From: a virus
Lineage: Duplodnaviria > Heunggongvirae > Uroviricota > Caudoviricetes
Direction: 5' to 3' (one strand)
IMG/VR virus record: IMGVR_UViG_2609460346_000006
Span: 1 to 42,345 of that record
Length of the DNA: 42,345 nt
Below, piece by piece: positions 5,767 through 42,345 of the stretch (its first letter is position 1; the number at the start of each line of letters is the position of its first letter). The notes under the pieces are model-generated. The model did not search any database. It saw only the letters and a list, made by a program, of their open reading frames with translations, and was not told where the DNA came from. The position numbers were made by a program, and so were the translations under genes.

Positions 5767-6720
5767 TTATTCGAATGGAAGATCTATTTGCCTTTGAGGA
5801 TTCAACTGTTTTTTTACATGCTCAATTTCGAATATGGTTTTTATGGCATCTCCGATCATATATTGAGTTACTTTTAAATCTACAAGTAACATATCACCTT
5901 TAGAAAAATTTAAGGTGTTGTTATCAATATCGCTGATGAATTTCTGGTCTTTTATTTCAGCCAAAAAGCTACTGGCACCATCAGAAAACCGCCACCGGCT
6001 TCCTTCATTGAAGGAAATATTTTTAATTTGAAGGGCTTTCTCTACTGTGTACTCTGAAATTATTGATTCTGCTGGTAGATTGACTTTGAAATAATGTGCT
6101 TCTTGCTTGTTGATCGTCATGAATGTCAAACCATCATCGACAGTAGAGGCAAAGCTGTCAATGCCTTCCTGCTCTAATGGCTTACTTATAACTTCTTGTA
6201 ATGAAGAGCGAAGTTTAATATTTTTATAAAGTTCAATAACGTTACTGTCGTAGATCTCGCTTTCGTCATCAACAAAGACTTCGATGTTGCTATCAGGCAA
6301 ATTGTGTAATTTTTTTATTTTCCTTGGACCTATCCATTTTATCAGTTGAATTAGGCCTTTGCATATTTTTTCTTTAGAACCAGGACAGAGTCCAATAAAA
6401 GCAATCAAATTCGCAGCGGCTGTTGCTGAATCGCCGGATAAAAAATCAACAGCCTGTTTGAACCAAGATGTAGATGAGGCAACCAGATCTATTCCAAATG
6501 AGCCAGCTTTAAATGATGCATTGACTTTTACAGAAACAACAGTCTTGTTTCCGTAGAGAGTTTTACCGGCTTCCTCTAATGCATCTGATAGTGATAGAAG
6601 GGCAGGAGCAAGGTCTCGCACGTTCATTTCATGCGTTTCCAGTGCCGGACCGTCGTATACTATCCTGAACTTCATATCATTGGTTTCCGAATTGTTGCCC
6701 GCATCCATTATGGCATTCAC
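5767..6720 (-). CDS. Unknown 317-aa protein in the rexAB slot; candidate lysogen-expressed accessory/defence gene
   Basis: Long AT-rich ORF directly downstream of and co-oriented with cI, own terminator, followed by oL/pL; no catalytic motif, TM segment or P-loop seen; start is GTG at 6720 or ATG at 6708 (AGGTGA 8 nt upstream). Confidence 0.7.
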   Translation of the reverse strand: MNAIMDAGNNSETNDMKFRIVYDGPALETHEMNVRDLAPALLSLSDALEEAGKTLYGNKTVVSVKVNASFKAGSFGIDLVASSTSWFKQAVDFLSGDSATAAANLIAFIGLCPGSKEKICKGLIQLIKWIGPRKIKKLHNLPDSNIEVFVDDESEIYDSNVIELYKNIKLRSSLQEVISKPLEQEGIDSFASTVDDGLTFMTINKQEAHYFKVNLPAESIISEYTVEKALQIKNISFNEGSRWRFSDGASSFLAEIKDQKFISDIDNNTLNFSKGDMLLVDLKVTQYMIGDAIKTIFEIEHVKKQLNPQRQIDLPFE

Positions 6721-6781: not shown

Positions 6782-7471
6782 CTACCCATGCTTCCTATAC
6801 GTCTGCGGCATGCTCCCAATAACCTTACCGAAGATGAACACCCGGTTCATCTCGTCTTTCTCGATCGGGTCCCAAGGTGAGTAGCTCTTGTTATCAGAGA
6901 TAACCAGCAGCTTATCCTTCATCATTTGCAGACGCTTTACATGGGCTGTGTCGTCGTACAGAAACGCATAGATACCATCACCGTCGAAAGATTTAACCGT
7001 GATATCAACGAACAGCAGATCACCTGGTTCGATCGTTCCTGACATGCTGTCACCGCGTACGTTAATGATACGGATATTTTCCGCCTTCCTGCCATCGAAC
7101 ATGTGACGAGCATCGTCAAACGAATACTCAACCGAACGTAGAACTTCTACAAACTCACGGTTGATGACTCCCGGCCCGGCACTCACTTCGATATCAAGAA
7201 CGTCAATCTTAAAGTATTTGGAATGGCTGACAGTTGTTTGTATTGGTTGCACTGTACTGTCTGACATATTTCCAACGCCAGAAGATAACCATTCTGCGCG
7301 CACACCCAAAGCGTTCGCGATCTCCACGATTTTAGTTGTTTGGTTAGCTTTCCCTGTTTCGATTTTCTGAATAGCTGCTTGGCTAACCCCGACCAAATCC
7401 CCAAGCGCCTTTTGTGTAAGGCCTCGCGCTAATCTGGCTTCTTTAAGTCTTTCTGAGAGTGTTGTTTTCAT
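6782..7471 (-). CDS. CI-like prophage repressor (N-terminal HTH, C-terminal S24/LexA-like peptidase)
   Basis: 229 aa from ATG 7469-7471; HTH (…LTQKALGDLVGVSQAAIQKIETGK…), Ala-Gly cleavage site (…VSAGPG…), Ser/Lys dyad (…GDSMSG…, …HVKRL…); divergent from cro across an operator region. Confidence 0.9.
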   Translation of the reverse strand: MKTTLSERLKEARLARGLTQKALGDLVGVSQAAIQKIETGKANQTTKIVEIANALGVRAEWLSSGVGNMSDSTVQPIQTTVSHSKYFKIDVLDIEVSAGPGVINREFVEVLRSVEYSFDDARHMFDGRKAENIRIINVRGDSMSGTIEPGDLLFVDITVKSFDGDGIYAFLYDDTAHVKRLQMMKDKLLVISDNKSYSPWDPIEKDEMNRVFIFGKVIGSMPQTYRKHG

Positions 7472-7575
7472 AGTCCAAATGTACAACCAAGGTTTTATTT
7501 CATCAAACGAAAATGGTTGTTGACTAAAAACAACCATGGTTTTAATCTTGATTCAAATTAACCACGGAGGTTGTT
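7472..7575. promoter_or_regulatory. OR region: divergent pRM/pR with three TGGTTGT-type operator sites
   Basis: Sites at ~7482-7492, 7514-7524, 7529-7540; candidate pR -35 TTGACT (7520-7525) with -10 near 7541-7548; GGAGG RBS before cro ATG. Confidence 0.6.
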
Positions 7576-7875: not shown

Positions 7876-8415
7876 ATGCAACCACTTACATACCAACAGA
7901 CTAGCGGATTTAGCCCGACTGCGGTGATAAATCGTTCTCAAACAAAACAAGCTCCAGGCCACGAAAAAATCCGTGATGCCGTCCGCGCCTGGTCGGCTGT
8001 AGATAATCAGGATGTCGTTGCCGCACTCATTGTGAATGAGTATCGGGAGCAGGGCGGCGGCACCATCGATTTCCCTGATGATGTCAGCCGTGCACGCCAG
8101 AAGCTGTTCCGCTTCCTCGATAACAAATTCGATTCTGAAAAATACCGAAATAACGTGCGTGAACTGACCCCGGCAATTCTGGCGGTACTACCGCTGGAAT
8201 ATCGCGGTTACCTAGTTGAGCAGGATAGCTTCATGGCTCGGCTGGCTGAAATGGAAAAGGAACTCAGTGAGGCAAAGCAGGCGGTCATTCTCAACGCACC
8301 ACGCCACCAGAAACTGAAGGAGATGAGTGAAGGCATTGTGTCGATGTTTCGAGTGGACCCGGATCTGGCTGGTCCACTGATGGCGATGGTCACCACCATG
8401 CTGGGGGCAATATGA
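7876..8415 (+). CDS. CII-position regulatory protein (YdaT-like), function uncertain
   Basis: 179 aa, AGGAG RBS, sits between cro-like and O; much larger than lambda CII. Confidence 0.5.
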   Translation: MQPLTYQQTSGFSPTAVINRSQTKQAPGHEKIRDAVRAWSAVDNQDVVAALIVNEYREQGGGTIDFPDDVSRARQKLFRFLDNKFDSEKYRNNVRELTPAILAVLPLEYRGYLVEQDSFMARLAEMEKELSEAKQAVILNAPRHQKLKEMSEGIVSMFRVDPDLAGPLMAMVTTMLGAI

Positions 8416-11083: not shown

Positions 11084-12610
11084 ATGAAAAAAGCCATAGC
11101 ATATATGCGATTTTCATCACCAGGTCAGATGTCTGGTGATTCATTAAACCGCCAGAGAAGGCTTATTACTGAATGGCTAAAGGTAAATAGTGATTATTAC
11201 CTTGATACCGTAACGTATGAAGATTTGGGGTTAAGCGCATTCAATGGAAAGCATGCACAATCAGGAGCTTTTTCGGAATTTTTAGATGCTATAGAACATG
11301 GTTATATATTGCCAGGGACTACATTGTTAGTTGAAAGTCTGGACAGACTTTCAAGAGAAAAAGTCGGTGAAGCGATTGAGCGTCTGAAATTGATTTTGAA
11401 TCACGGTATTGATGTTATAACTCTTTGCGATAATACAGTCTATAATATTGACTCATTGAATGAGCCATATTCATTAATAAAAGCCATACTTATAGCACAA
11501 AGGGCAAATGAAGAAAGCGAGATAAAGTCAAGTCGGGTTAAATTATCATGGAAGAAAAAACGGCAGGATGCACTGGAGTCAGGCACGATTATGACGGCTT
11601 CTTGTCCGAGATGGCTCTCATTGGATGACAAAAGAACGGCTTTTGTTCCAGACCCCGACAGGGTGAAAACTATTGAGCTAATTTTTAAACTCAGGATGGA
11701 AAGGCGCTCATTGAATGCAATAGCCAAGTATTTAAATGATCATGCTGTAAAGAATTTCTCAGGAAAAGAAAGTGCATGGGGACCTTCTGTAATTGAAAAA
11801 TTATTAGCGAATAAAGCTCTGATAGGTATATGCGTACCTTCATATCGTGCAAGAGGGAAAGGGATAAGTGAAATCGCTGGCTATTATCCCAGAGTCATAT
11901 CAGATGATTTGTTTTACGCTGTACAGGAAATTCGGTTGGCACCTTTTGGTATTAGCAATAGTAGCAAGAATCCTATGCTAATAAATCTACTTCGAACAGT
12001 TATGAAGTGTGAGGCTTGTGGTAATACCATGATTGTTCATGCGGTATCTGGAAGTTTGCATGGCTATTATGTTTGTCCGATGAGAAGATTACATCGATGT
12101 GACAGACCATCAATAAAAAGAGATTTGGTTGATTATAATATCATTAATGAATTGCTTTTTAATTGTAGCAAAATTCAACCAGTTGAAAACAAGAAAGATG
12201 CTAATGAAACTTTAGAGTTAAAAATTATTGAGCTTCAGATGAAAATTAATAATTTAATCGTTGCATTGTCTGTCGCGCCTGAAGTTACCGCTATAGCAGA
12301 GAAAATAAGACTATTAGATAAGGAATTACGAAGGGCTTCGGTATCATTAAAAACTTTGAAGAGTAAAGGGGTGAGTTCACTTGGTGATTTTCATGCTATT
12401 GATTTAACCAGTAAAAATGGGCGAGAGCTATGTCGTACACTTGCCTATAAAATATTCGAAAAAATTATAATTAATACAGATAATAAAACCTGTGATATCT
12501 ATTTTATGAATGGCATTGTTTTTAAACACTATCCTTTAATGAAAGTAATATCCGCCCAGCAGGCGATAAGTACTCTTAAATATATGGTTGATGGTGAGAT
12601 TTATTTTTGA
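11084..12610 (+). CDS. ybcK: Large serine recombinase (YbcK-like)
   Basis: 508 aa; N-terminal resolvase-type catalytic domain (…AIAYMRFSSPGQ… with catalytic Ser, …LLVESLDRLSR…), Cys-rich zinc-ribbon region and coiled-coil C-terminus; AT-rich. Confidence 0.8.
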   Translation: MKKAIAYMRFSSPGQMSGDSLNRQRRLITEWLKVNSDYYLDTVTYEDLGLSAFNGKHAQSGAFSEFLDAIEHGYILPGTTLLVESLDRLSREKVGEAIERLKLILNHGIDVITLCDNTVYNIDSLNEPYSLIKAILIAQRANEESEIKSSRVKLSWKKKRQDALESGTIMTASCPRWLSLDDKRTAFVPDPDRVKTIELIFKLRMERRSLNAIAKYLNDHAVKNFSGKESAWGPSVIEKLLANKALIGICVPSYRARGKGISEIAGYYPRVISDDLFYAVQEIRLAPFGISNSSKNPMLINLLRTVMKCEACGNTMIVHAVSGSLHGYYVCPMRRLHRCDRPSIKRDLVDYNIINELLFNCSKIQPVENKKDANETLELKIIELQMKINNLIVALSVAPEVTAIAEKIRLLDKELRRASVSLKTLKSKGVSSLGDFHAIDLTSKNGRELCRTLAYKIFEKIIINTDNKTCDIYFMNGIVFKHYPLMKVISAQQAISTLKYMVDGEIYF

Positions 12611-12934: not shown

Positions 12935-12961
12935 AGCCCGCATAAGTGCGGGCTGCTTTTT
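12935..12961 (+). terminator. Rho-independent terminator (possibly bidirectional) between ybcK-like and the esterase gene
   Basis: Hairpin AGCCCGCA-TAAG-TGCGGGCT followed by GCTTTTT; abuts the esterase stop codon. Confidence 0.6.
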
Positions 12962-14003
12962 ACAGGTCAGCGTTTGTTTTTTGTTGTTGGGTAGCGGTTT
13001 TTATGGGGGTTCCCAGGTTTTTAGTAAACCACTCAACAACTCTGTTTATAATAATTGGCTGATACCATGTATTATCGCCATGCTCAGCCCCTTCTACCAG
13101 AACGTACTCAGCGTTATCGCCGTTCTTCTTCAACATCCTGAATAGTTTGGCGCTTTGCTCAGGTGAAACCAGAGTGTCTTTGCTACCATGCATAATAAGA
13201 AATGGGGGTTTTACTCCTTTCATATGTCCGATTGGACTGGCGTTTAGCGCTTTTTCTTTTGACGCTGTTATGGGGGCTCCCGCAAAACTTCTGAATGCAG
13301 GGCCATTGATCATTAAGGCTTCGGTTACGGCAGGAGATCGATGAACCTCCTGCACTGATTCAGGGAACCCCTCGCCAATATTCAACAAGTCAGAAATCCC
13401 ATAAAGTGTGGCAACTGCCTGAACATCTGCTGATTGCTGAAGAAAGTCACCTTTATTAAAGGTTTTGTCACCATTTGTAGTTCCCATCATCTGGGCAAGC
13501 CATCCACCGGCAGAGTCACCCAGAACTCCGATTCTTTGAGGATCAATCCCATAATCGCTGGCATGTTCTCTCAAGTAACGTATTGCAGCTTTCCCATCCT
13601 CAACTGGTGCTGGAAATGTATCAGGAATTGTTCTGTATTCTACAGCGGCCACAACAAAACCAGCTTCAGCCAGAGCCATTCTCATTTCAATAAATTTGTC
13701 ATGTTCAGAAGACATGAATCCGCCGCCGGGATAATAAATAATGGCTGGTCTTAAATCATTTGTTCGCGGGACAAGAACTGACATGTGAAGCTGTCTGACA
13801 GAACGAGTTCCTTTTATCTGGGAATAAACAACATCACCAATGAGATCGACCTGGTTTCTGGTGGGTGAAACACTAATGATATCTGCACCCGGGGTGTAAC
13901 CAGGAAGATTAGTCTGGACAGGTGTTGCACAACTCCCGACCGACATGGCCATTGACATACCATACAATAGTGTTGCAGATGATAATATCTTGTTAATTTT
14001 CAT
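12960..14003 (-). CDS. Secreted alpha/beta-hydrolase esterase/lipase, probable lipoprotein
   Basis: 347 aa; signal peptide with lipobox-like …SVGSC…; HGGG-like …YYPGGGF… and nucleophile elbow …GDSAGG… of the alpha/beta hydrolase fold. Confidence 0.8.
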   Translation of the reverse strand: MKINKILSSATLLYGMSMAMSVGSCATPVQTNLPGYTPGADIISVSPTRNQVDLIGDVVYSQIKGTRSVRQLHMSVLVPRTNDLRPAIIYYPGGGFMSSEHDKFIEMRMALAEAGFVVAAVEYRTIPDTFPAPVEDGKAAIRYLREHASDYGIDPQRIGVLGDSAGGWLAQMMGTTNGDKTFNKGDFLQQSADVQAVATLYGISDLLNIGEGFPESVQEVHRSPAVTEALMINGPAFRSFAGAPITASKEKALNASPIGHMKGVKPPFLIMHGSKDTLVSPEQSAKLFRMLKKNGDNAEYVLVEGAEHGDNTWYQPIIINRVVEWFTKNLGTPIKTATQQQKTNADL

Positions 14004-16512: not shown

Positions 16513-17595
16513 TTAGAACTGATAAACCAGACCTACAGCGACGATGTCGTCGGTATCAATACCAGCTGTTTTGGTAAACTTACTATCGTCAATTAAGTTG
16601 ATTTTGTAATCAACAAAAGTGGACATGTTTTTATTAAAGTAGTAAGTAGCACCGACATCGACATACTTGACTAAGTCTCGGTCACCATGAACACCAAGGT
16701 CTTTACCTTTTGACTGAAGGTAAGCAACAGATGGTCGCAGACCGAAGTCAAACTGATATTGTGCTACTGCTTCAAAGTTTTGTGCTTTGTTTGCAATATG
16801 GTTATTACCAAAAACGGTCATATTCTGAGTTTCAGAATATGTGGTAGCCAGATAGATATTGTTCGCATCATATTTCAGGCCTGCAGCCCATACTTCCGCA
16901 TTTTTGCCGGAGGCATTGAATTTGCTCTTACCATAGGCGACCTGACCGTCAGTGCGATCTGATTTAGCATAGGTTGCACCCACGCCGAATCCTTCATACT
17001 CATAAGTAGTGGAGAAACCGAAACCATCACCATTGGCTTCAGTTACGTCAGTGCGGTCATTTTTACCCTGATACTGAGCAGCAAAGTTCAGGCCATCGAC
17101 CAGACCAAAGAAGTCGTTGTTACGATAAGTTGCAACACCAGTAGTGCGACCAGTCATGAACACATCTGTTTGGGTCCAGGTATCACCACCGAATTCTGGC
17201 AGGACGTCAGTCCACGCACCGATGTCGTATGCTACACCGTAGTTACGGCCGTAATCGATTGAGCCGTAATCACCAAATTTCAGGCCTGCAAATGCAAGAC
17301 GGGTTTTGTCTTTGGAAGAACCTTGAGATTCAGCACGGTTGCCTTTGAATTCATATTCCCACTGACCGAAACCAGTCAGTTGATCGTTGATTTGGGTTTC
17401 ACCTTTGAAGCCAAGACGGGCATAAGTAGTATCACCATCATCTGCATCATTAGAGGAAAAGTAGTGCTTGGCATTAACTTTCCCGTATAGATCCAGCTTG
17501 TTACTGTCTTTATTATAAATTTCAGCTGCCTGAGCAGACATCGCCATCAGTACTGATGCAGCTACAGCAGAAATTGCCACTGTTAATTTTTTCAT
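16513..17595 (-). CDS. nmpC: OmpC/NmpC-family general porin (phage moron)
   Basis: 360 aa; signal peptide ending …SAQA; porin-like sequence ending in the C-terminal …VGLVYQF; antisense between Q and lysis genes as for DLP12 nmpC. Confidence 0.9.
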
Positions 17596-35133: not shown

Positions 35134-35583
35134 GTGTTCATGCTTACTTGTTTTGATGTCGCCGACTACTTCCTGTCGCGGTGTGACGAGGATAGCGGTG
35201 ACGCAATCTCTAATTTAAAATTACAAAAGCTTGTTTACTATGCTCAGGGTTTTTCATTGGCGTTGCTTGGCGAGCCTCTTTTTCAGAATAAGATGGAAGC
35301 TTGGATGCATGGCCCTGTTGTCCCTGAGCTTTATCACCGTTATAAACAATATGGTAATGGTGCTATCCCTTCTCCAGAGTCTTTTGATGCTGAAAAATTC
35401 AGCGAAGAACAGTTAGAGCTATTAGAAGAAGTCTGGGATGTTTTTGGGCAATTTTCTGCCTGGAAACTGAGGAACATGACACACGAAGAGTCACCATGGA
35501 GATCAAACTATATTGAGGGTGTTGGTGGTTCTGAAATTAGTTCTAAGGAGATGGCAGAGTACTTTGCAACTCGGATTAACTAA
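35134..35583 (+). CDS. Panacea-domain (DUF4065) protein, GepA/SocA-like; candidate antitoxin
   Basis: 149 aa; motif …LKLQKLVYYAQGFSLALLGEPLF…AWMHGPVVPELY… matches the DUF4065 core as recalled; GGAGG RBS. Confidence 0.75.
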   Translation: MFMLTCFDVADYFLSRCDEDSGDAISNLKLQKLVYYAQGFSLALLGEPLFQNKMEAWMHGPVVPELYHRYKQYGNGAIPSPESFDAEKFSEEQLELLEEVWDVFGQFSAWKLRNMTHEESPWRSNYIEGVGGSEISSKEMAEYFATRIN

Positions 35584-35587
35584 CGAG

Positions 35588-36007
35588 ATGGCAAGAAAAT
35601 CTAAAAGGATTATCCCCCCTGCTGAATCTACAGGTAAGTTAAAGTTAGGGCCGCAGTCAGGGGGGAATTCAGATCAAAAGAAACCGAAATTTTCATTCTG
35701 TTACATCCAAAGCTCTCACTGCATAACGAAATGCCAAAAAGATGAGAAAGCTGGCTTAGCTGATAAATTATACAGATTAAGTCAACTAACATGGGCAGAT
35801 ATTAAGCAGCAAGGTAGGCATAAGCTTGGATTTGAGAAGATTGCAAGGGGTGCAATTAAAGCAGGTATCCCCAGTCATATAACGGAAGACGTAGATCATT
35901 TCTTGGCTTTTAGATTTGATGATTTGAAAGCCATGGTTGGTTATCGTCTTGGATCGACATTTTTTGTTATATGGCTTGATAGAGAGTTCAACCTATACAA
36001 GCACTAA
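35588..36007 (+). CDS. Unknown 139-aa protein immediately downstream of the Panacea gene; candidate toxin/effector partner
   Basis: Internal ATG 35588, 4 nt after the Panacea stop; basic N-terminus, Cys-containing, C-terminal …FFVIWLDREFNLYKH; no family recognised. Confidence 0.5.
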   Translation: MARKSKRIIPPAESTGKLKLGPQSGGNSDQKKPKFSFCYIQSSHCITKCQKDEKAGLADKLYRLSQLTWADIKQQGRHKLGFEKIARGAIKAGIPSHITEDVDHFLAFRFDDLKAMVGYRLGSTFFVIWLDREFNLYKH

Positions 36008-36008
36008 T

Positions 36009-36034
36009 AAAACCCCCCGTCAGGTGGGTTTTTT
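36009..36034. terminator. Bidirectional terminator between the Panacea operon and mnt
   Basis: Hairpin flanked by an A-run upstream and a T-run downstream (AAAACCCCCCGTCAGGTGGGTTTTTTG). Confidence 0.6.
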
Positions 36035-36271
36035 GTACAAATCCTTCAGCGTATCAAACACCATCTTCCTAACAAGTTCGGACTGCTCATCAGCGATGCG
36101 TTCTGCATCGTCTCGATAGCCTGCAATTGGTGATGGTTTTGATAGCGCATCCTGAACGATTTGTAATAACTCTGAGTTCATTGACCTTCCGTTAGCCTCT
36201 GCTCTTAATTTCAATTTTTCTCTTACTTCCAAAGGCATACGGAAGTTAAAGTGCGGATCGTCTCTAGCCAT
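36020..36271 (-). CDS. mnt: Mnt repressor (ribbon-helix-helix)
   Basis: 83 aa, near-identical to P22 Mnt as recalled (MARDDPHFNFRMP…EVREKLK…RAEANGRSMNSELLQIVQDALSKPSP…). Confidence 0.9.
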   Translation of the reverse strand: MARDDPHFNFRMPLEVREKLKLRAEANGRSMNSELLQIVQDALSKPSPIAGYRDDAERIADEQSELVRKMVFDTLKDLYKKPT

Positions 36272-36294
36272 GCCATCACTCCAAGTTAGTATCT

Positions 36295-36552
36295 CTAACT
36301 TTCGTCTTTATTGTTGCTATACATGCATTTCAACTTCTCAACATCATGTTCAAGATCTATCAATCGTGATGCTATAGTTGCAAGGTCTAGTGCTTGAATG
36401 TGTTTATTTTTTTCGGTCCATGCTTCAAGTGCCGCGACCATCTCAGCATTTAATGAACGAGAATTAGCCTCAGCCAGTTCAATAAGACGTTCCTTTATCT
36501 CTACAGGAAGCCTCAGATTCACTTGAGGGTTTTTGTACTTACGATCAGACAT
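36295..36552 (-). CDS. Second Mnt/Arc-like RHH DNA-binding protein
   Basis: 85 aa from ATG 36552 (track ORF begins at GTG 36558); RHH signature …NLRLPVEIKERLIELAEANSRSLNAEMVAAL…. Confidence 0.7.
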   Translation of the reverse strand: MSDRKYKNPQVNLRLPVEIKERLIELAEANSRSLNAEMVAALEAWTEKNKHIQALDLATIASRLIDLEHDVEKLKCMYSNNKDES

Positions 36553-36558
36553 CGGCAC

Positions 36559-36657
36559 ATCCTGAATAATTTTTTACCACAGGATATGTAGGTATCTATT
36601 GACTATCAATGCGTACCTAAATACTATGTATGCGTACCACATACAACGGAGGATGCA
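36559..36657. promoter_or_regulatory. immI control region: divergent promoters with palindromic operator-like sites
   Basis: Inverted repeats AGGTA…TACCT and ATTGA…TCAAT and a duplicated TGCGTACC motif between divergent RHH genes. Confidence 0.45.
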
Positions 36658-36798
36658 ATGAAGGTAAAAACACTGCGTATGCCAGAGAAGTTAGAAAAAA
36701 TCCTTGAAGAGAAAGCAAAGGAAGAGTGTCGCTCATTTAGTGCAGAAGTAATTAAACGGGTGATGGACAGCCTGAAGAGAGAGGGGATAACGGTATGA
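36658..36798 (+). CDS. Arc-like RHH repressor (46 aa)
   Basis: Manual translation MKVKTLRMPEKLEKILEEKAKEECRSFSAEVIKRVMDSLKREGITV; GGAGG RBS; parallels P22 Arc …NGRSVNSEIYQRVMESFKKEG…. Confidence 0.6.
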   Translation: MKVKTLRMPEKLEKILEEKAKEECRSFSAEVIKRVMDSLKREGITV

Positions 36799-36998
36799 GT
36801 AAAGAATGTTGTTTCTGCGGCATTAGCGAATCAGACGCTGATCAAACATACATTTACTCTAAAGAAACAGGTCGGATGCTGTGTAGTGACTGCGTGTTGG
36901 ACATCATAAGATACAAGCATCTTGGATGTTCTGCCAGCATTAGCAATATAGGTGAAGTATATGAAGGGAAAGATATAACTGATAGAGCAGAAAGTTGA
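36795..36998 (+). CDS. Small zinc-ribbon protein between arc-like and ant
   Basis: 67 aa, ATG overlapping the arc-like stop; CxxC…CxxC (…CCFCG…CSDCV…). Confidence 0.5.
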   Translation: MSKECCFCGISESDADQTYIYSKETGRMLCSDCVLDIIRYKHLGCSASISNIGEVYEGKDITDRAES

Positions 36999-37061
36999 AG
37001 CCCCAACTGCGGTAACAGTCAGGGCTTCGGTATCGTAAAACCACGCATAGGAATTAACGAC

Positions 37062-37985
37062 ATGAAAAGTATAGCAACAGCAGTATCTACTATCAATGTA
37101 CCATTCCACGGCGCAGAGCTTTATGTTGTCAATCACAACGGTGAGCCGTACACCCCAATGAAACCTATCGTTGAGGGAATGGGTATGGATTGGGCTTCAC
37201 AGTTTACAAAGTTAAAACAAAGATTTGCTAAAGGTATTGTGGAAATCGCAATACCTTCAGTTGGCGGTGTGCAGAACATGATTTGCCTTGCTTTACGTAA
37301 ACTTAATGGCTGGTTGCAAACCATCAGTCCTAACAAAGTCCGCCCTGAAATCCGCGACAATGTAATCCAGTATCAAGAAGAGTGTGACGATGTGCTATAC
37401 GAGTACTGGACTAAAGGCCATGTAGTTAACCCACGCAAAGCTAAAAAGGCGTTGCCGGGTAAAATCACCACTGAGCAGCAGGAAGCCATTAAACAACTCG
37501 TCATGAGTCGCGGTCAGTCTCTGCCAAAAGAAAAACAGGCTAAGGCGATGATCACCATGTGGTCGTCACTGAAATCCCATTTTGGATGTTCGTACAAAGA
37601 AATCAGTGAGGAGCAGTTTACCGAAGCACTATCGCTTGCAGCTCGAGTTCCACTTGAAGGTGAGTTCATTGGCAAACAAGAGAAGAAAACCAACGAGCTT
37701 TCTGCAAAAGAAGCAAACAGCCTTGTATGGCTATGGGATTATGCCAACCGCTCACAGGCATTATTCCGCGAATTGTATCCGGCGCTAAAACAAATTCAAT
37801 CGAACTATTCAGGCAGATGCTACGACTACGGTCATGAGTTCTCGTATGTTATCGGAATGGCGAGAGATGTTTTAATTAATCACACACGAGATGTTGATAT
37901 CAATGAGCCAGACGGACCAACGAATCTTTCTGCATGGATAAGACTTAAGAACAAAGAATTACCTCCTTCAGTACATAACTACTGA
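37062..37985 (+). CDS. ant: Antirepressor Ant (P22_AR_N-type N-terminal domain)
   Basis: 307 aa downstream of arc-like in an immI arrangement; followed by a strong terminator. Confidence 0.7.
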   Translation: MKSIATAVSTINVPFHGAELYVVNHNGEPYTPMKPIVEGMGMDWASQFTKLKQRFAKGIVEIAIPSVGGVQNMICLALRKLNGWLQTISPNKVRPEIRDNVIQYQEECDDVLYEYWTKGHVVNPRKAKKALPGKITTEQQEAIKQLVMSRGQSLPKEKQAKAMITMWSSLKSHFGCSYKEISEEQFTEALSLAARVPLEGEFIGKQEKKTNELSAKEANSLVWLWDYANRSQALFRELYPALKQIQSNYSGRCYDYGHEFSYVIGMARDVLINHTRDVDINEPDGPTNLSAWIRLKNKELPPSVHNY

Positions 37986-38002
37986 CAGATAAACAACGCA
38001 AC

Positions 38003-38028
38003 GACCCAGCTTCGGCTGGGTTTTTTTA
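38003..38028 (+). terminator. Rho-independent terminator after ant
   Basis: CCCAGC-TTCG-GCTGGG followed by TTTTTTT. Confidence 0.8.
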
Positions 38029-38085
38029 TGCCCAAAATTCACCGTAGCCCCGCTGCGGAGATTCCTTGTATCTGGAGCAAATTAA

Positions 38086-40158
38086 ATGACAGACATTACA
38101 GCCAATGTTGTAGTGAGTATGCCTTCGCAACTCTTCACTATGGCGCGTTCTTTTAAAGCCGTAGCCAATGGCAAAATTTATATCGGTAAAATTGACACTG
38201 ACCCGGTAAATCCTGAAAACCAGATTCAGGTTTATGTGGAGAACGAAGATGGTTCTCACGTTCCTGTTGCACAGCCAATCATCATTAACGCTGCTGGTTA
38301 CCCGGTATATAACGGACAGATTGCCAAGTTCGTAACTGTGCAAGGCCATTCTATGGCTGTTTATGATGCATACGGTGTGCAGCAGTTCTATTTTCCTAAT
38401 GTGCTGAAGTATGACCCGGATCAGTTGCGACAGCAATTATTAAACCCTGACACTGGCCTAGGAGATGCGCTTGTTATTGTTAAACAGCCATATGCTGGTT
38501 CTGTACCTATTACTCAACATCAGCACAACACCTATCTCCTTACCCCTTACCACTTCGCAGCAAAGGGAGATGGTATTACAGATGACACTCTTGCCCTAAA
38601 CCGCTGGTCCAATTGCGGAGCTAAGGTACTCTATTGGCCAGCAGGAAAATATCTGGTGAGCCCTACAAATGGTGTTTCTCTGGATATGGATAACTACCAT
38701 ACAGGGGATTCCGCACTAACGGCGTGCGTAACCGTTCCCTATGGCGTGAAAATTTATACGGCTGGGACAGAAACCCAGTTATGCGTGAAGGATGCTGACT
38801 CAGCATCGACCGTAGGTCTGGCCGTTAGCTACCCGGAGTCAAGTTATTCCCAGGGAGAAACCGACATCGGAAAATTCATGATTCGCCTGGAAAACGGAAA
38901 TGGTCGGTACGGTATTCTTACTCCACTCAGGGGGGAAATGTTCACTGCGCACCGGGCGAAGTTCAAATTAGGAGCGCATTTCGGTCCTCAACAGGGGCGT
39001 GATGACCTGACGGTGCTACAGTATTCGTGGGTAAATGGCATGCTGATTGGCGACGCTTTTAGCGGCTCAGTGCATGTCACTGGATACGGCAGCTATAACG
39101 TACAGCAGGTTGAAGGTACGCAATTCCAGTGCGTGGCCGTTAAGATGAAGTCCGTTCGAGGTAACGTAGGTGTAGACATCAGATTCAACACAAACAACTG
39201 GTGGAAGTTTGTCGAACTGAGTGACGGCGTTGAAGGGTTTGTTGTCAAGGACAGCGAAGGGCTTGGGGCATTTGTTGGAATCGACCTAACCAACCCAGCC
39301 AGCGAGCCAGGTGGATTTATCGATAACGTACACGTCAACGTTAAGCAAAACGGAGTACGAGCCAGAAACAGGCCATCCCTGCAAATCGGAAACATTGAAG
39401 TCTATAAAAGTGATGGATTTGCCACTGACCTTGTTTACGATGCGGTGCTTCTGGTTGACTGCCAGGAAGTGACTATCAACTCTATTCACGCAATCGTCGG
39501 CAACTCAATCACAAATGCTCAGTCAGTAGTTAACTCGACAAACAGCACATTCCGCCTGAACTCATACTTTGCGCAAAACATCAGGTTCGTCGATTTTGTG
39601 GTTAATAGCCCTGACTGCTATGTCGGAGAGGGGACAATTAACCAGGTCGAGGCAGTTCACTCACTTTCTGGATCACAAAGCAACGACTTCCACGGTAGTG
39701 ATGTTCTGGTTAGATCCTACAGAAACAACGTTCGCCCACTTTACGCAGTGATGGATTCCGCTTTCAACAGGGCAAGGGCGAGGTTTCCACAAAATACAAG
39801 CCTCCAGGTGAGAACCTTTCTCGACTACACTGTGGCAGCAGCTGGGACTTTAACAATAGAACCAAGGCTTGACCCATCCAGGTACTACATCATCATGAGT
39901 GCTGGTACAGGTGCCTTCACCTATTCAATTGAGCTGGATAAAGTGTCTGCCGTAGTTGGTGATATTGTTTACATAAAGATAGCCGGGTCATCATCTGCTA
40001 ACCCAACAGTTTTGGTTAAAAATGGTATTGGTGGGACAACGCTCAGCACATTCAATAATATCGGTCCGATTCGTTTGAATTGTGCTTACAGATTTAATGA
40101 GTCAGGTAACTGGGTGGCCTACTACATTACCCAAAGCGTTGAAACCACTTATGGCTAA
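38086..40158 (+). CDS. Tailspike protein: P22 gp9-type head-binding domain with a different receptor-binding domain
   Basis: 690 aa; first ~110 aa closely match the P22 tailspike N-terminus ([13 protein letters not shown]…[26 protein letters not shown]…VLKYDPDQ); remainder does not match P22. Confidence 0.9.
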
Positions 40159-40629: not shown

Positions 40630-41106
40630 TTAACTAAACATCGCAGTAATCGAGGCACTCGCCAGAGAGTGAAAATGAACGTTAAACCCGACCATCGCGC
40701 CGCTGGCACCTTCATCGACATCAATACGTTCTACATCCAGCGCGTGAACGGTAAAAATGTAGCGATGGGTTTCGCCTTTCGGCGGCGCTGCGCCATCGTA
40801 CCCGGTTTTACCAAAGTCGGTACGCGTCTGCAAAACGCCGTCTGGCATAGCTACCAGACCAGAGCCAAACCCTTGCGGTAATACGCGGGTATCAGCGGGT
40901 AAATTAACAACTACCCAGTGCCACCAGCCGGAGCCGGTTGGCGCATCCGGGTCATAGCAGGTGACAACAAAACTTTTCGTTCCCACAGGAACATCATCCC
41001 ACGCCAGATGCGGTGAAATATTATCGCCATCGTAACCCATGCCGTTAAAGACATGACGATGCGGCAGCTTATCGCCATCGCGCAGATCGTTACTGATGAG
41101 TTTCAT
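40630..41106 (-). CDS. ybhB: Host YbhB (PEBP/RKIP-family protein)
   Basis: 158 aa matching E. coli YbhB as recalled; adjacent to attB-lambda as in E. coli. Confidence 0.85.
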   Translation of the reverse strand: MKLISNDLRDGDKLPHRHVFNGMGYDGDNISPHLAWDDVPVGTKSFVVTCYDPDAPTGSGWWHWVVVNLPADTRVLPQGFGSGLVAMPDGVLQTRTDFGKTGYDGAAPPKGETHRYIFTVHALDVERIDVDEGASGAMVGFNVHFHSLASASITAMFS

Positions 41107-42345
41107 TAGAATGCCTCCGGGAAACCTCGGCCTTCAGACCGGGGAGGAAAGGAGGCGGTTTTCCGACTAACTGTACTTTGCATAATCACATTTTCCTCTT
41201 TAGTATGTGAACACATGAAACGCGCATATAAATACCGGTTTTACCCGACAACTGAGCAGGCTGAGCTTTTAGCTCAGACGTTTGGCTGTGTGCGCTTCGT
41301 CTACAATTCCATCCTTCGTTGGCGTACCGATGCGTACTACGAGCGAAAAGAAAAGATCGGTTATCTACAGGCCAACGCTCGCCTTACGGCGCTCAAAAAA
41401 GAGCCTGAATACATATGGCTGAATGATGTTTCCTGCGTTCCCCTCCAGCAGTCGTTGCGCCACCAACAAGCCGCCTTTGCTAACTTCTTTGCCGGACGAG
41501 CTGCATATCCGGCTTTCAAAAGCAAACGGCACAAACAGGTGGCTGAGTTCACTGCCAGCGCGTTTAAACACCGTGACGGCGAGTTGTATATAGCAAAGAG
41601 CAAGTCGCCGCTGGATGTTCGCTGGAGTCGAGAATTACCATCTGCGCCGTCAACCGTTACCATTTCCAGAGATAGCGCTGGCAGGTACTTTGTTTCCTGC
41701 CTGTGTGAGTTTGAACCTGTATCAATGCCTGTTACCGCTAAAACGGTCGGCATTGATGTGGGCTTAAAAGATTTATTCGTCACCGATACCGGATTCAAAA
41801 CCGACAATCCCCGCCACACCGCTAAATATGCGAAGCGATTAACGCTGCTACAGCGACGTTTAAGCAGGAAGCAAAAAGGCTCAAGAAACCGTATTAAAGC
41901 CCGCTTAAAGGTCGCCCGACTCCACGCGAAAATCGCCGATTGCCGGATGGACAATCTGCACAAGTTGTCCCGCAAACTGATTAACGAAAACCAAGTTGTT
42001 TGCGTCGAATCCCTCAAGGTGAAAAACATGATCCGCAACCCGAAGCTGTCTAAAGCAATAGCTGACGCAGGCTGGAGCGAACTTGTTCGCCAGCTCCAGT
42101 ACAAAGGCAAATGGGCCGGGCGGTCAGTGGTCGCCATTGACCAGTATTTACCGTCCTCAAAATGCTGTAGTTGCTGCGGTTTCACCATGCAAAAAATGCC
42201 TCTTAATGTTCGTAAATGGCACTGCCCTGAATGCGGCGCAGACCATGATCGCGACATTAACGCGGCACGTAATATTAAAGCTGCCGGGCTGGCAGTGTTA
42301 GCCCACGGAGAGCCTGTAAACCCTGAATCGCAGCACGCGGCTTAG
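41107..42345 (+). mobile_element. Partial IS200/IS605-family element carrying only tnpB (right end beyond window)
   Basis: tnpB with ~108 bp of structured upstream sequence and no Y1 tnpA seen on the left flank. Confidence 0.5.
41215..42345 (+). CDS. tnpB: IS200/IS605-family TnpB (OrfB)
   Basis: 376 aa; RuvC-like motifs and zinc finger (…CCSCCGF…HCPECGADHDRDINAARNI…); stop codon is the last triplet of the window. Confidence 0.9.
   Translation: MKRAYKYRFYPTTEQAELLAQTFGCVRFVYNSILRWRTDAYYERKEKIGYLQANARLTALKKEPEYIWLNDVSCVPLQQSLRHQQAAFANFFAGRAAYPAFKSKRHKQVAEFTASAFKHRDGELYIAKSKSPLDVRWSRELPSAPSTVTISRDSAGRYFVSCLCEFEPVSMPVTAKTVGIDVGLKDLFVTDTGFKTDNPRHTAKYAKRLTLLQRRLSRKQKGSRNRIKARLKVARLHAKIADCRMDNLHKLSRKLINENQVVCVESLKVKNMIRNPKLSKAIADAGWSELVRQLQYKGKWAGRSVVAIDQYLPSSKCCSCCGFTMQKMPLNVRKWHCPECGADHDRDINAARNIKAAGLAVLAHGEPVNPESQHAA

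Follow-up and report, generated by a model that had tools for sequence, protein, structure and literature searches.

A P22-like prophage carries a mosaic, CUS-3-type immI region with a replaced control cassette and an mnt gene separated from its operator

The immI locus of the P22-like prophage analyzed here contains two genes that P22 lacks, and the question it raises is whether these genes add control over the antirepressor gene ant. The locus lies in IMG/VR record IMGVR_UViG_2609460346_000006, whose full 42,345 nucleotides are called the window and supply the numbering throughout. A whole P22-like prophage is present in the window, with an integrase gene (1-1143), an S24/helix-turn-helix (HTH) repressor gene (6782-7537), virion genes, and a tailspike gene (38086-40158). 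The immI locus, also known as the "ant moron" (Villafane et al. 2008, PMC2629481), is flanked by ejection-protein genes (a gene-16 homolog) and the tailspike gene. An initial annotation, made from the sequence alone, had described five genes at this locus and had proposed that they provide extra control over ant expression. All five genes were found at the positions that it gave, both in the list of open reading frames (ORFs) and in the sequence, and Pfam, Rfam, and a comparison with P22 agreed that the region is of the immI type (mnt/arc/sar/ant) with two genes absent from P22. The principal features are as follows.

36020-36271, minus strand: mnt, 83 amino acids (Pfam Arc, 1e-27, and Repressor_Mnt, 1.6e-17)
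36295-36552, minus strand: RHH2, a ribbon-helix-helix (RHH) gene, 85 amino acids from an ATG at 36552 (Pfam Arc, 3.4e-10)
36559-36657, no strand: divergent control region, without similarity to the P22 operators
36658-36798, plus strand: arcL, 46 amino acids, first gene of the ant operon (Pfam Arc, 2.9e-9)
36795-36998, plus strand: Zn67, a C4 zinc-finger ORF of 67 amino acids (C5/C8 and C30/C33), matching phrog_7150 end to end (3e-50)
36993-37060, minus strand: sar antisense RNA (Rfam RF00262, gathering score 43; score here 85.7 bits, E = 7e-18)
37062-37985, plus strand: ant, antirepressor, 307 amino acids (P22_AR_N, 3e-44, and P22_AR_C, 6e-30)
37068-37096, minus strand: Psar candidate, TTGATA-17-TATACT with an extended −10 TG (10 of 12 consensus positions), in the place of the annotated P22 Psar

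A cassette replaces the P22 control segment

The window was compared with the annotated immI region of P22 by BLASTN, and three blocks of homology were found. They cover mnt with its ribosome-binding site (36011-36290, 87.9% nucleotide identity), sar (36991-37077, 83%), and the 3′ end of ant with its terminator (37653-38054, 90%). The 700 bp between the first two blocks (36291-36990) had no counterpart in the P22 immI region. This cassette contains RHH2, the divergent promoter/operator region, arcL, and Zn67, and it stands where P22 has a 231-bp segment with Pant, Pmnt, Oarc, Omnt, and arc. Comparison with epsilon34 placed the left break directly after catgccatcactccaagttagt, about 20 nucleotides upstream of the mnt start codon, and the right junction fell at the sar terminator. 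Because the left break lies so close to the start codon, mnt retains its ribosome-binding site but has lost its own promoter and operator.

Searches for the two P22 operators, Oarc (ATGATAGAAGCACTCTACTAT) and Omnt (AGGTCCACGGTGGACCT), returned zero matches in the 42-kb window, whether up to 3 or up to 4 mismatches were allowed. There were likewise zero matches in the complete CUS-3 genome and in all tandem-type loci, those with both RHH2 and mnt, of a survey that comprised 39 IMG/VR loci plus reference loci. As controls, Oarc was found exactly and Omnt with one mismatch in epsilon34 and in Escherichia coli 23AR1217, and the operators were also recovered in P22, where they are annotated protein-binding sites, and in survey locus L007. 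The locus otherwise shares with P22 immI its genomic position, a divergent Mnt-family gene, an Arc-family gene at the head of the ant operon, a sar antisense RNA with Psar inside ant, and an Ant protein with P22_AR_N and P22_AR_C domains, but, unlike P22, it has a leftward pair of RHH genes, and its arc and ant are separated by an additional ORF.

The same gene order and the same junctions occur in phage CUS-3 (CP000711; King et al. 2007), with 94.8% nucleotide identity over 36045-38100. CUS-3 differs in the genes that flank the locus on the left, where the window has a Panacea-domain pair. In the CUS-3 record two genes are annotated as "mnt" and the arcL/Zn67 segment simply as "boundary sequence." We conclude that the apparent expansion is a cassette replacement and that the locus belongs to the P22-family immI regions as a mosaic variant of the CUS-3 type. 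The arrangement is not new, since a published phage genome and about 1% of E. coli genomes already have it. Its chief interest is as a clear case of modules exchanged at defined boundaries, namely, the mnt translation-initiation region, the junction of the arc stop with ATGA, and the sar terminator.

RHH2 and ArcL flank a divergent control region

The initial annotation had described RHH2 as a second Mnt-like gene on the same strand as mnt, and the family searches agreed. In addition to its Pfam Arc match, RHH2 is labeled an Arc family protein by the Prokaryotic Genome Annotation Pipeline (PGAP), matches over its full length phrog_795, the same PHROG as Mnt, and is 32% identical to P22 Mnt over 76 amino acids. 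It has the Arc domain and no match to PF11423, and its membership in the Mnt family holds at the PHROG level only. Translation could also begin at a GTG at 36558; the ATG at 36552, which has an AGGA Shine-Dalgarno sequence and is the PGAP choice, is likelier. Because of its full-length similarity to the Mnt PHROG and because the gene abuts the control region, RHH2 is the strongest candidate for maintenance repressor, and it is likely a Mnt-family repressor of different specificity.

On the other side of the control region, arcL was initially described as a 46-residue Arc-like ORF, an assignment borne out by Pfam and by PGAP, which annotates the gene. ArcL is 39% identical to P22 Arc, its gene is preceded by a GGAGGA Shine-Dalgarno sequence (36648-36653), and the protein is a candidate for the early shutoff repressor. 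CUS-3 has been described as apparently without arc (Villafane et al. 2008, PMC2629481). The CUS-3 genome nevertheless carries a 46-amino-acid, unannotated Arc-family ORF; the published inference is therefore an annotation gap, and CUS-3-type phages do have arc. Separately, protein P0001 (112 amino acids, from a 2.5-kb Logan contig) is an in-frame ArcL-Zn67 fusion (...LKRGGDGMSKECC...) with a 1-nucleotide difference at the ATGA junction, and it could be either a natural fusion or an assembly error.

The control region contains the following elements.

36581-36609, minus strand: leftward promoter candidate for RHH2-mnt, TTGATA-17-TATCCT (9 of 12 consensus positions)
36599-36627, plus strand: rightward promoter candidate for arcL-Zn67-ant and analog of Pant, TTGACT-17-TACTAT (9 of 12)
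36602-36617 and 36623-36638, no strand: direct repeats ACTATCAATGCGTACC and ACTATGTATGCGTACC, identical at 14 of 16 positions, with a 21-bp period
36628-36644, no strand: 17-bp imperfect palindrome GTATGCGTACCACATAC, read from the sequence and also scored as a hairpin

The −35 hexamers of the two promoter candidates overlap inside the palindrome TTGACTATCAA, and RNA polymerase would therefore probably be unable to occupy both promoters at once. Competition between Pant and Pmnt of P22 follows a similar principle, but the P22 promoters overlap face to face, whereas those in the window seem to stand back to back.

The initial annotation had also called the region rich in palindromic operators, a description that shuffling did not support. 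The best inverted repeat within 36559-36657 was equaled or exceeded in 145 of 500 dinucleotide shuffles, and the sole feature above chance was the 16-nucleotide direct repeat, the score of which was reached in 3 of 500. The repeats (consensus, ACTAT(C/G)(A/T)ATGCGTACC) extend from the promoter spacer across the −10 hexamer to the start site, and 36602-36638 is marked as a candidate operator. The 17-bp palindrome lies directly after the −10 hexamer, roughly in the place of P22's Omnt, and is a candidate RHH2 site by position only, inverted repeats being at chance level in this region. Natural variants were uninformative for telling an RHH2 site from an ArcL site, as the control region does not vary among the 7 type-A loci, not even when RHH2 identity falls to 67%.

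The P22-type mnt gene has no cognate operator

On the minus strand RHH2 is transcribed first, and mnt follows 23 bp downstream. Among the RHH proteins of the locus, the mnt product alone combines an Arc domain with the PF11423 C-terminal tetramerization domain. It was initially described as near-identical to P22 Mnt, which overstates an identity of 90% (74 of 82 amino acids). The N-terminal residues that read DNA are the same as those of P22 Mnt, and the protein should therefore recognize Omnt. Since the window contains no Omnt, the P22-type Mnt is left without a cognate site for regulating the resident ant, and the initial proposal that it exerts extra control there was not supported by the operator searches of the window, the tandem loci, and CUS-3.

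In tandem loci the orphan mnt gene was found as seven distinct alleles, all full length and 74 to 100% identical, with residues 1 to 47 almost invariant. Pairwise comparison of the alleles gave 0.43 synonymous differences per synonymous site (pS) and 0.078 nonsynonymous differences per nonsynonymous site (pN), the pN/pS ratio being 0.18 overall and 0.09 in the RHH domain. This pattern argues against simple decay. P22-type Pant/Oarc/Omnt regions were present in 167 of 5,426 complete E. coli genomes (3%), so targets for a Mnt that acts in trans do circulate. Trans-immunity and passenger status are roughly comparable explanations for the orphan Mnt. Phages L and ST64T have a mnt-like gene without ant, possibly a remnant according to the authors, and the same two options were weighed for the gene of phage L (PMC8022706). 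If the trans-immunity option is true, an operator-less Mnt that confers cross-immunity against the antirepressors of other phages would be a form of interprophage defense.

Two further candidates connected with mnt were rejected. An RNA hairpin around the mnt translation-initiation region (36239-36251 with 36293-36305), considered as a coupling device, was not significant (z = −1.43). A perfect 8-bp inverted repeat, AGTGGACC-N11-GGTCCACT, lies at 8352-8378 inside a ydaT-like gene of the early-right operon; as a Mnt target, this pair of Omnt half-sites (8353-8377) has reversed order and wrong spacing and is absent from CUS-3.

Zn67 is a coupled small ORF between arcL and ant

The 67-residue CxxC...CxxC ORF that the initial annotation had placed between arc and ant was also confirmed. 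The Zn67 start codon overlaps the arcL stop codon (ATGA), with a GAGG Shine-Dalgarno sequence 8 nucleotides upstream, and this GAGGGG-N8-ATGA junction is kept behind three arc types and also before unrelated ORFs that occupy the same slot. The protein is essentially invariant, although it is found behind at least three arc types (59 to 100% amino acid identity) and before ant alleles that are 47 to 100% identical. In Salmonella, homologs of 68 amino acids and 35 to 36% identity are found in exactly this slot in genuine P22-type immI loci and keep M-x-x-E-C-C-F-C-G...C-x-x-C, all four cysteines, and the coupling to the arc stop. CUS-3-type phages have this uncalled 67-residue zinc-finger gene, and it recurs in P22-like prophages of E. 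coli and Salmonella. One Salmonella homolog is named "ClpX-type ZB domain-containing" by UniRef.

Zn67 has an N-terminal CxxC-(18-21)-CxxC arrangement, the four cysteines of which are invariant in homologs at 25 to 36% identity, and its predicted N-terminal β-β-β-α order matches a zinc-finger fold. The N-terminal C4 domain of ClpX (PF06689; PDB 2DS5) shares the CxxCG...(I/L)CxxC(V/I) spacing and the predicted β-β-β-α order, but Zn67 differs in having an extra cysteine (C6), a 27-residue C-terminal tail of low confidence, and no AAA+ module. In E. coli AR_0118 the slot holds a 60-amino-acid ORF that passes the Pfam model zf-C4_ClpX (PF06689) at 7.6e-11, and alignment of Zn67 to this ORF by hhalign gave a probability of 83% (E = 9e-6). 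ClpX (6vfs) was among three matches in a PDB profile search, aligned at its zinc-binding domain (ZBD) with a nonsignificant E of 2.2, and the Zn67 homolog P0014 reached PF06689 at an E of only 0.086. We conclude that Zn67 is probably a treble-clef C4 zinc finger that resembles the ClpX ZBD.

Other searches with Zn67 returned little. A Foldseek search of the PDB with the Zn67 model gave nothing significant, and a profile scan of genome contigs with a 3-sequence Zn67 alignment gave nothing that was confirmed. An exhaustive search of protein representatives returned mostly long cysteine-rich repeat proteins, which are spurious, and one true homolog of 68 amino acids. Codon-level proof of coding was attempted and set aside, as a pN/pS of 0.27 on a handful of changes is weak. 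The literature searched gave no function for any stand-alone ClpX-type zinc finger and nothing relevant that connects such fingers or ClpXP with antirepressor operons.

The slot itself is variable. In related phages it holds a 73-amino-acid ORF (phrog_11805), a 57-amino-acid ORF (phrog_17642), or an 89-amino-acid ORF, and it is empty in P22, epsilon34, and PhiR12. That the slot contains four or more unrelated small ORFs, or none, is as suggestive of an accessory gene as it is of a regulator. The immI regions of P1 and P7 (c4 antisense RNA-icd-ant1/2) likewise have a small ORF coupled upstream of an antirepressor gene under antisense-RNA control. Icd, however, is a cell-division inhibitor without a zinc finger, the sequences are unrelated, and the regulators of P1 and P7 are RNA based rather than RHH proteins.

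In many loci with a ClpX-ZBD-like slot ORF, a ClpP-family gene of 178 amino acids (PF00574) lies directly after the leftward Mnt-like gene (L076 to L080 from Salmonella; L010, L013, L018, L021, L024, L026, L031, L032, L034, and L072 from E. coli). The slot ORFs of these loci belong to three different ZBD sequence types, and the E. coli set includes group-B loci. A strict pairing of ZBD-like and ClpP-like genes was rejected: phiv205-1, EC.P3, and PhiR12 have the ClpP-like gene with another slot ORF or none, and the window has no ClpP-like gene.

The sar RNA and its promoter inside ant are features that the initial annotation did not contain. sar folds into two stem-loops (z = −5.1) and covers the Zn67 stop codon as well as the ribosome-binding site of ant. 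Ant is 57% identical to P22 Ant in amino acid sequence.

Distribution of the cassette in E. coli and Salmonella

E. coli STEC346 matches the locus at 100%, and in that genome PGAP calls three Arc-family proteins and does not call Zn67. Among the 5,426 complete E. coli genomes, 45 have the mnt/RHH2 junction and 56 have the cassette at a coverage of at least 80%. In the survey, RHH2, arcL, and the control region that lies between them stay linked whether or not mnt is present. Loci with RHH2 only include an O104:H4 prophage and eight IMG/VR loci, and their existence shows that RHH2, the operator, and arcL form a self-sufficient switch to which mnt is an add-on.

About 590 E. coli genomes match part of the cassette, and most of these are accounted for by O157:H7 copies. 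In O157:H7, a module of RHH, arc, Zn67, sar, and ant lies between the lambdoid tail genes L and K (L003, 2280-2810, FRIK2455; L036 to L046). Salmonella phage SEN22 (L075, 1624-2758) has an RHH2 homolog of 84% amino acid identity and an Arc-like gene, so the RHH2-type switch also circulates in Salmonella; in SEN22 a transposon interrupts ant, and there is no mnt downstream.

A model for the locus and its alternatives

Homology to P22 and shared position suggest how the locus could work. In a lysogen, RHH2 would be made from the leftward promoter and would repress the back-to-back rightward promoter. Upon infection or derepression, the rightward promoter would transcribe arcL-Zn67-ant, ArcL would then shut that promoter off, sar RNA from Psar inside ant would block ant translation, and Ant would inactivate a prophage repressor of the S24/HTH kind, for example, that encoded at 6782-7537. 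The P22-type mnt would be transcribed behind RHH2 in the same operon without controlling the resident ant, and its product would be either a trans-acting immunity factor, repressing the ant of superinfecting phages with a P22-type immI, or a passenger not yet decayed. Zn67 would be a real, translationally coupled small zinc-finger protein that is related to the N-terminal ZBD of ClpX and expressed with Ant. Its most likely role is accessory or host directed, possibly through an action on ClpX-dependent recognition, and not that of a DNA-binding regulator. Taken as a whole, a mosaic CUS-3-type immI with an RHH2-run switch, an orphan mnt, and a coupled Zn67 is what we consider the probable explanation.

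A number of observations pull the other way. The β-strand of RHH2, PQVNLRLP, is closer to PQFNLRWP of Arc than to the strand of Mnt, and the Mnt role of RHH2 and the Arc role of ArcL are assigned by position and family alone. The promoters are consensus matches only, 4 having been found where 4.6 are expected in shuffled sequences. Zn67 fails the Pfam and NCBIfam models, with no PF06689 match even at an E of ≤10, and is for that reason filed as a treble-clef C4 zinc finger, probably like the ClpX ZBD. AlphaFold models of Zn67 had a predicted local distance difference test score of about 56, from the single sequence and from a 4-sequence alignment alike, and fold searches ranked generic treble-clef fingers above the ClpX ZBD. 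Only 6 Zn67 DNA variants are available, and in O157:H7 the module is decaying, with Zn67 frameshifted (+1 T) and arc truncated. Finally, recombination from cognate contexts may have imported orphan-mnt sequence that was already selected, and a low pN/pS is therefore no proof of selection in the orphan state. Over the first 78 codons, two synonymous changes separate the allele of tandem locus L033 from that of L007, a cognate P22-type locus.

If instead the resident ant operon were under an extra layer of control by Zn67 and the two leftward RHH repressors, it would be natural that all of the genes cluster around one control region and that Mnt is intact and conserved. The arms TAGGT...ACCTA (36589-36593 and 36615-36619) are also similar to the Omnt ends, although their spacer is longer by 12 bp. 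We consider this reading quite unlikely, since Omnt is missing at up to 4 mismatches from both the window and CUS-3, the inverted repeats of the control region are at chance level, RHH2-only modules without mnt are common, and related phages with the same ant and sar have various ORFs, or none, in the zinc-finger slot. The proposal that Zn67 is not a gene, being a chance frame in a linker conserved for recombination or for sar/ant function, is more improbable still. It would fit the lack of a call by PGAP and in the CUS-3 record, the near absence of DNA variation with its scant codon-level evidence, and a frameshift in O157:H7 that has no obvious consequence. It sits poorly, however, with Salmonella homologs that keep MxxECCFCG...C..C and the coupling to the arc stop in the same slot at 35 to 36% identity, with the existence of a PHROG family (phrog_7150), with an independent zf-C4_ClpX ORF in that slot, and with a predicted N-terminal β-β-β-α order that fits a zinc-finger fold.

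The P22-type mnt could also be a functionless relic of the recombination event that brought in the cassette, intact because the gene is short and the event recent or because recombination keeps renewing it, and this we regard as plausible although short of probable. Both operator and promoter are lost, phages L and ST64T provide a precedent for a mnt-like gene without ant (PMC8022706), and in tandem locus L009 a truncated ClpP-like fragment of 71 amino acids just downstream of the orphan mnt points to decay of the neighborhood. A relic is harder to reconcile with seven distinct full-length alleles that have identical DNA-contact residues and diverge as given above (pS, 0.43; pN, 0.078), with a junction fixed in 45 genomes and CUS-3, and with a ribosome-binding site retained in a gene that lies 23 bp behind an expressed one. 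At the opposite extreme, two immI specificities might be kept on purpose, RHH2 for the phage's own ant and Mnt as a guard in trans against superinfecting ant that shields the lysogen from antirepressor-mediated induction, with Zn67 as a mimic of the ClpX N domain that alters ClpXP turnover of Ant, Arc, or the prophage repressor. In combination, these proposals seem rather doubtful to us. Neither question, that of the orphan Mnt or that of Zn67, changes the known logic of immI.

Boundaries of the locus and neighboring genes

Terminator scans marked both ends of the locus.

36016-36028, no strand: GC-rich hairpin with T-runs on both sides
38003-38022, plus strand: intrinsic terminator after ant and before the tailspike gene, homologous to the annotated P22 ant terminator

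The first hairpin is likely a bidirectional terminator at which two operons end, RHH2-mnt running leftward and Panacea running rightward, and its epsilon34 counterpart is annotated as a rho-independent terminator. A further terminator-like hairpin with a T-run lies at 36511-36528 on the plus strand, antisense within the RHH2 coding sequence, and might affect late-operon read-through toward the tailspike gene.

Directly upstream of immI, a Panacea/SocA-domain gene (35134-35583, plus strand; Pfam, 8e-25) is followed after 4 nucleotides by a gene of 139 amino acids (35588-36007, plus strand), the product of which belongs to phrog_8366 and weakly matches NsnC in PADLOC (4e-6). The pair at 35134-36007 looks like a PanA-type antitoxin with its toxin, or a defense pair, and a pair 57 to 70% identical to it is present in IMG/VR loci L016 and L029. 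Adjoining the prophage repressor gene, an ORF of 317 amino acids (5767-6720, minus strand) matches the PADLOC candidate defense family PDC-S42 (E = 3e-86) and occupies the usual place of rexAB-type genes expressed by prophages.

Elsewhere in the prophage, cargo genes encode a large serine recombinase (11084-12610, plus strand), a BD-FAE/alpha-beta-hydrolase esterase (12960-14003, minus strand), and a full-length general porin (16513-17595, minus strand; Porin_1, 2e-151). Past the tailspike gene lie a PEBP-family gene (40630-41106, minus strand) and an IS605-type OrfB/TnpB gene with a Cas12f-like TNB domain (41215-42345, plus strand), which continues beyond the end of the window.

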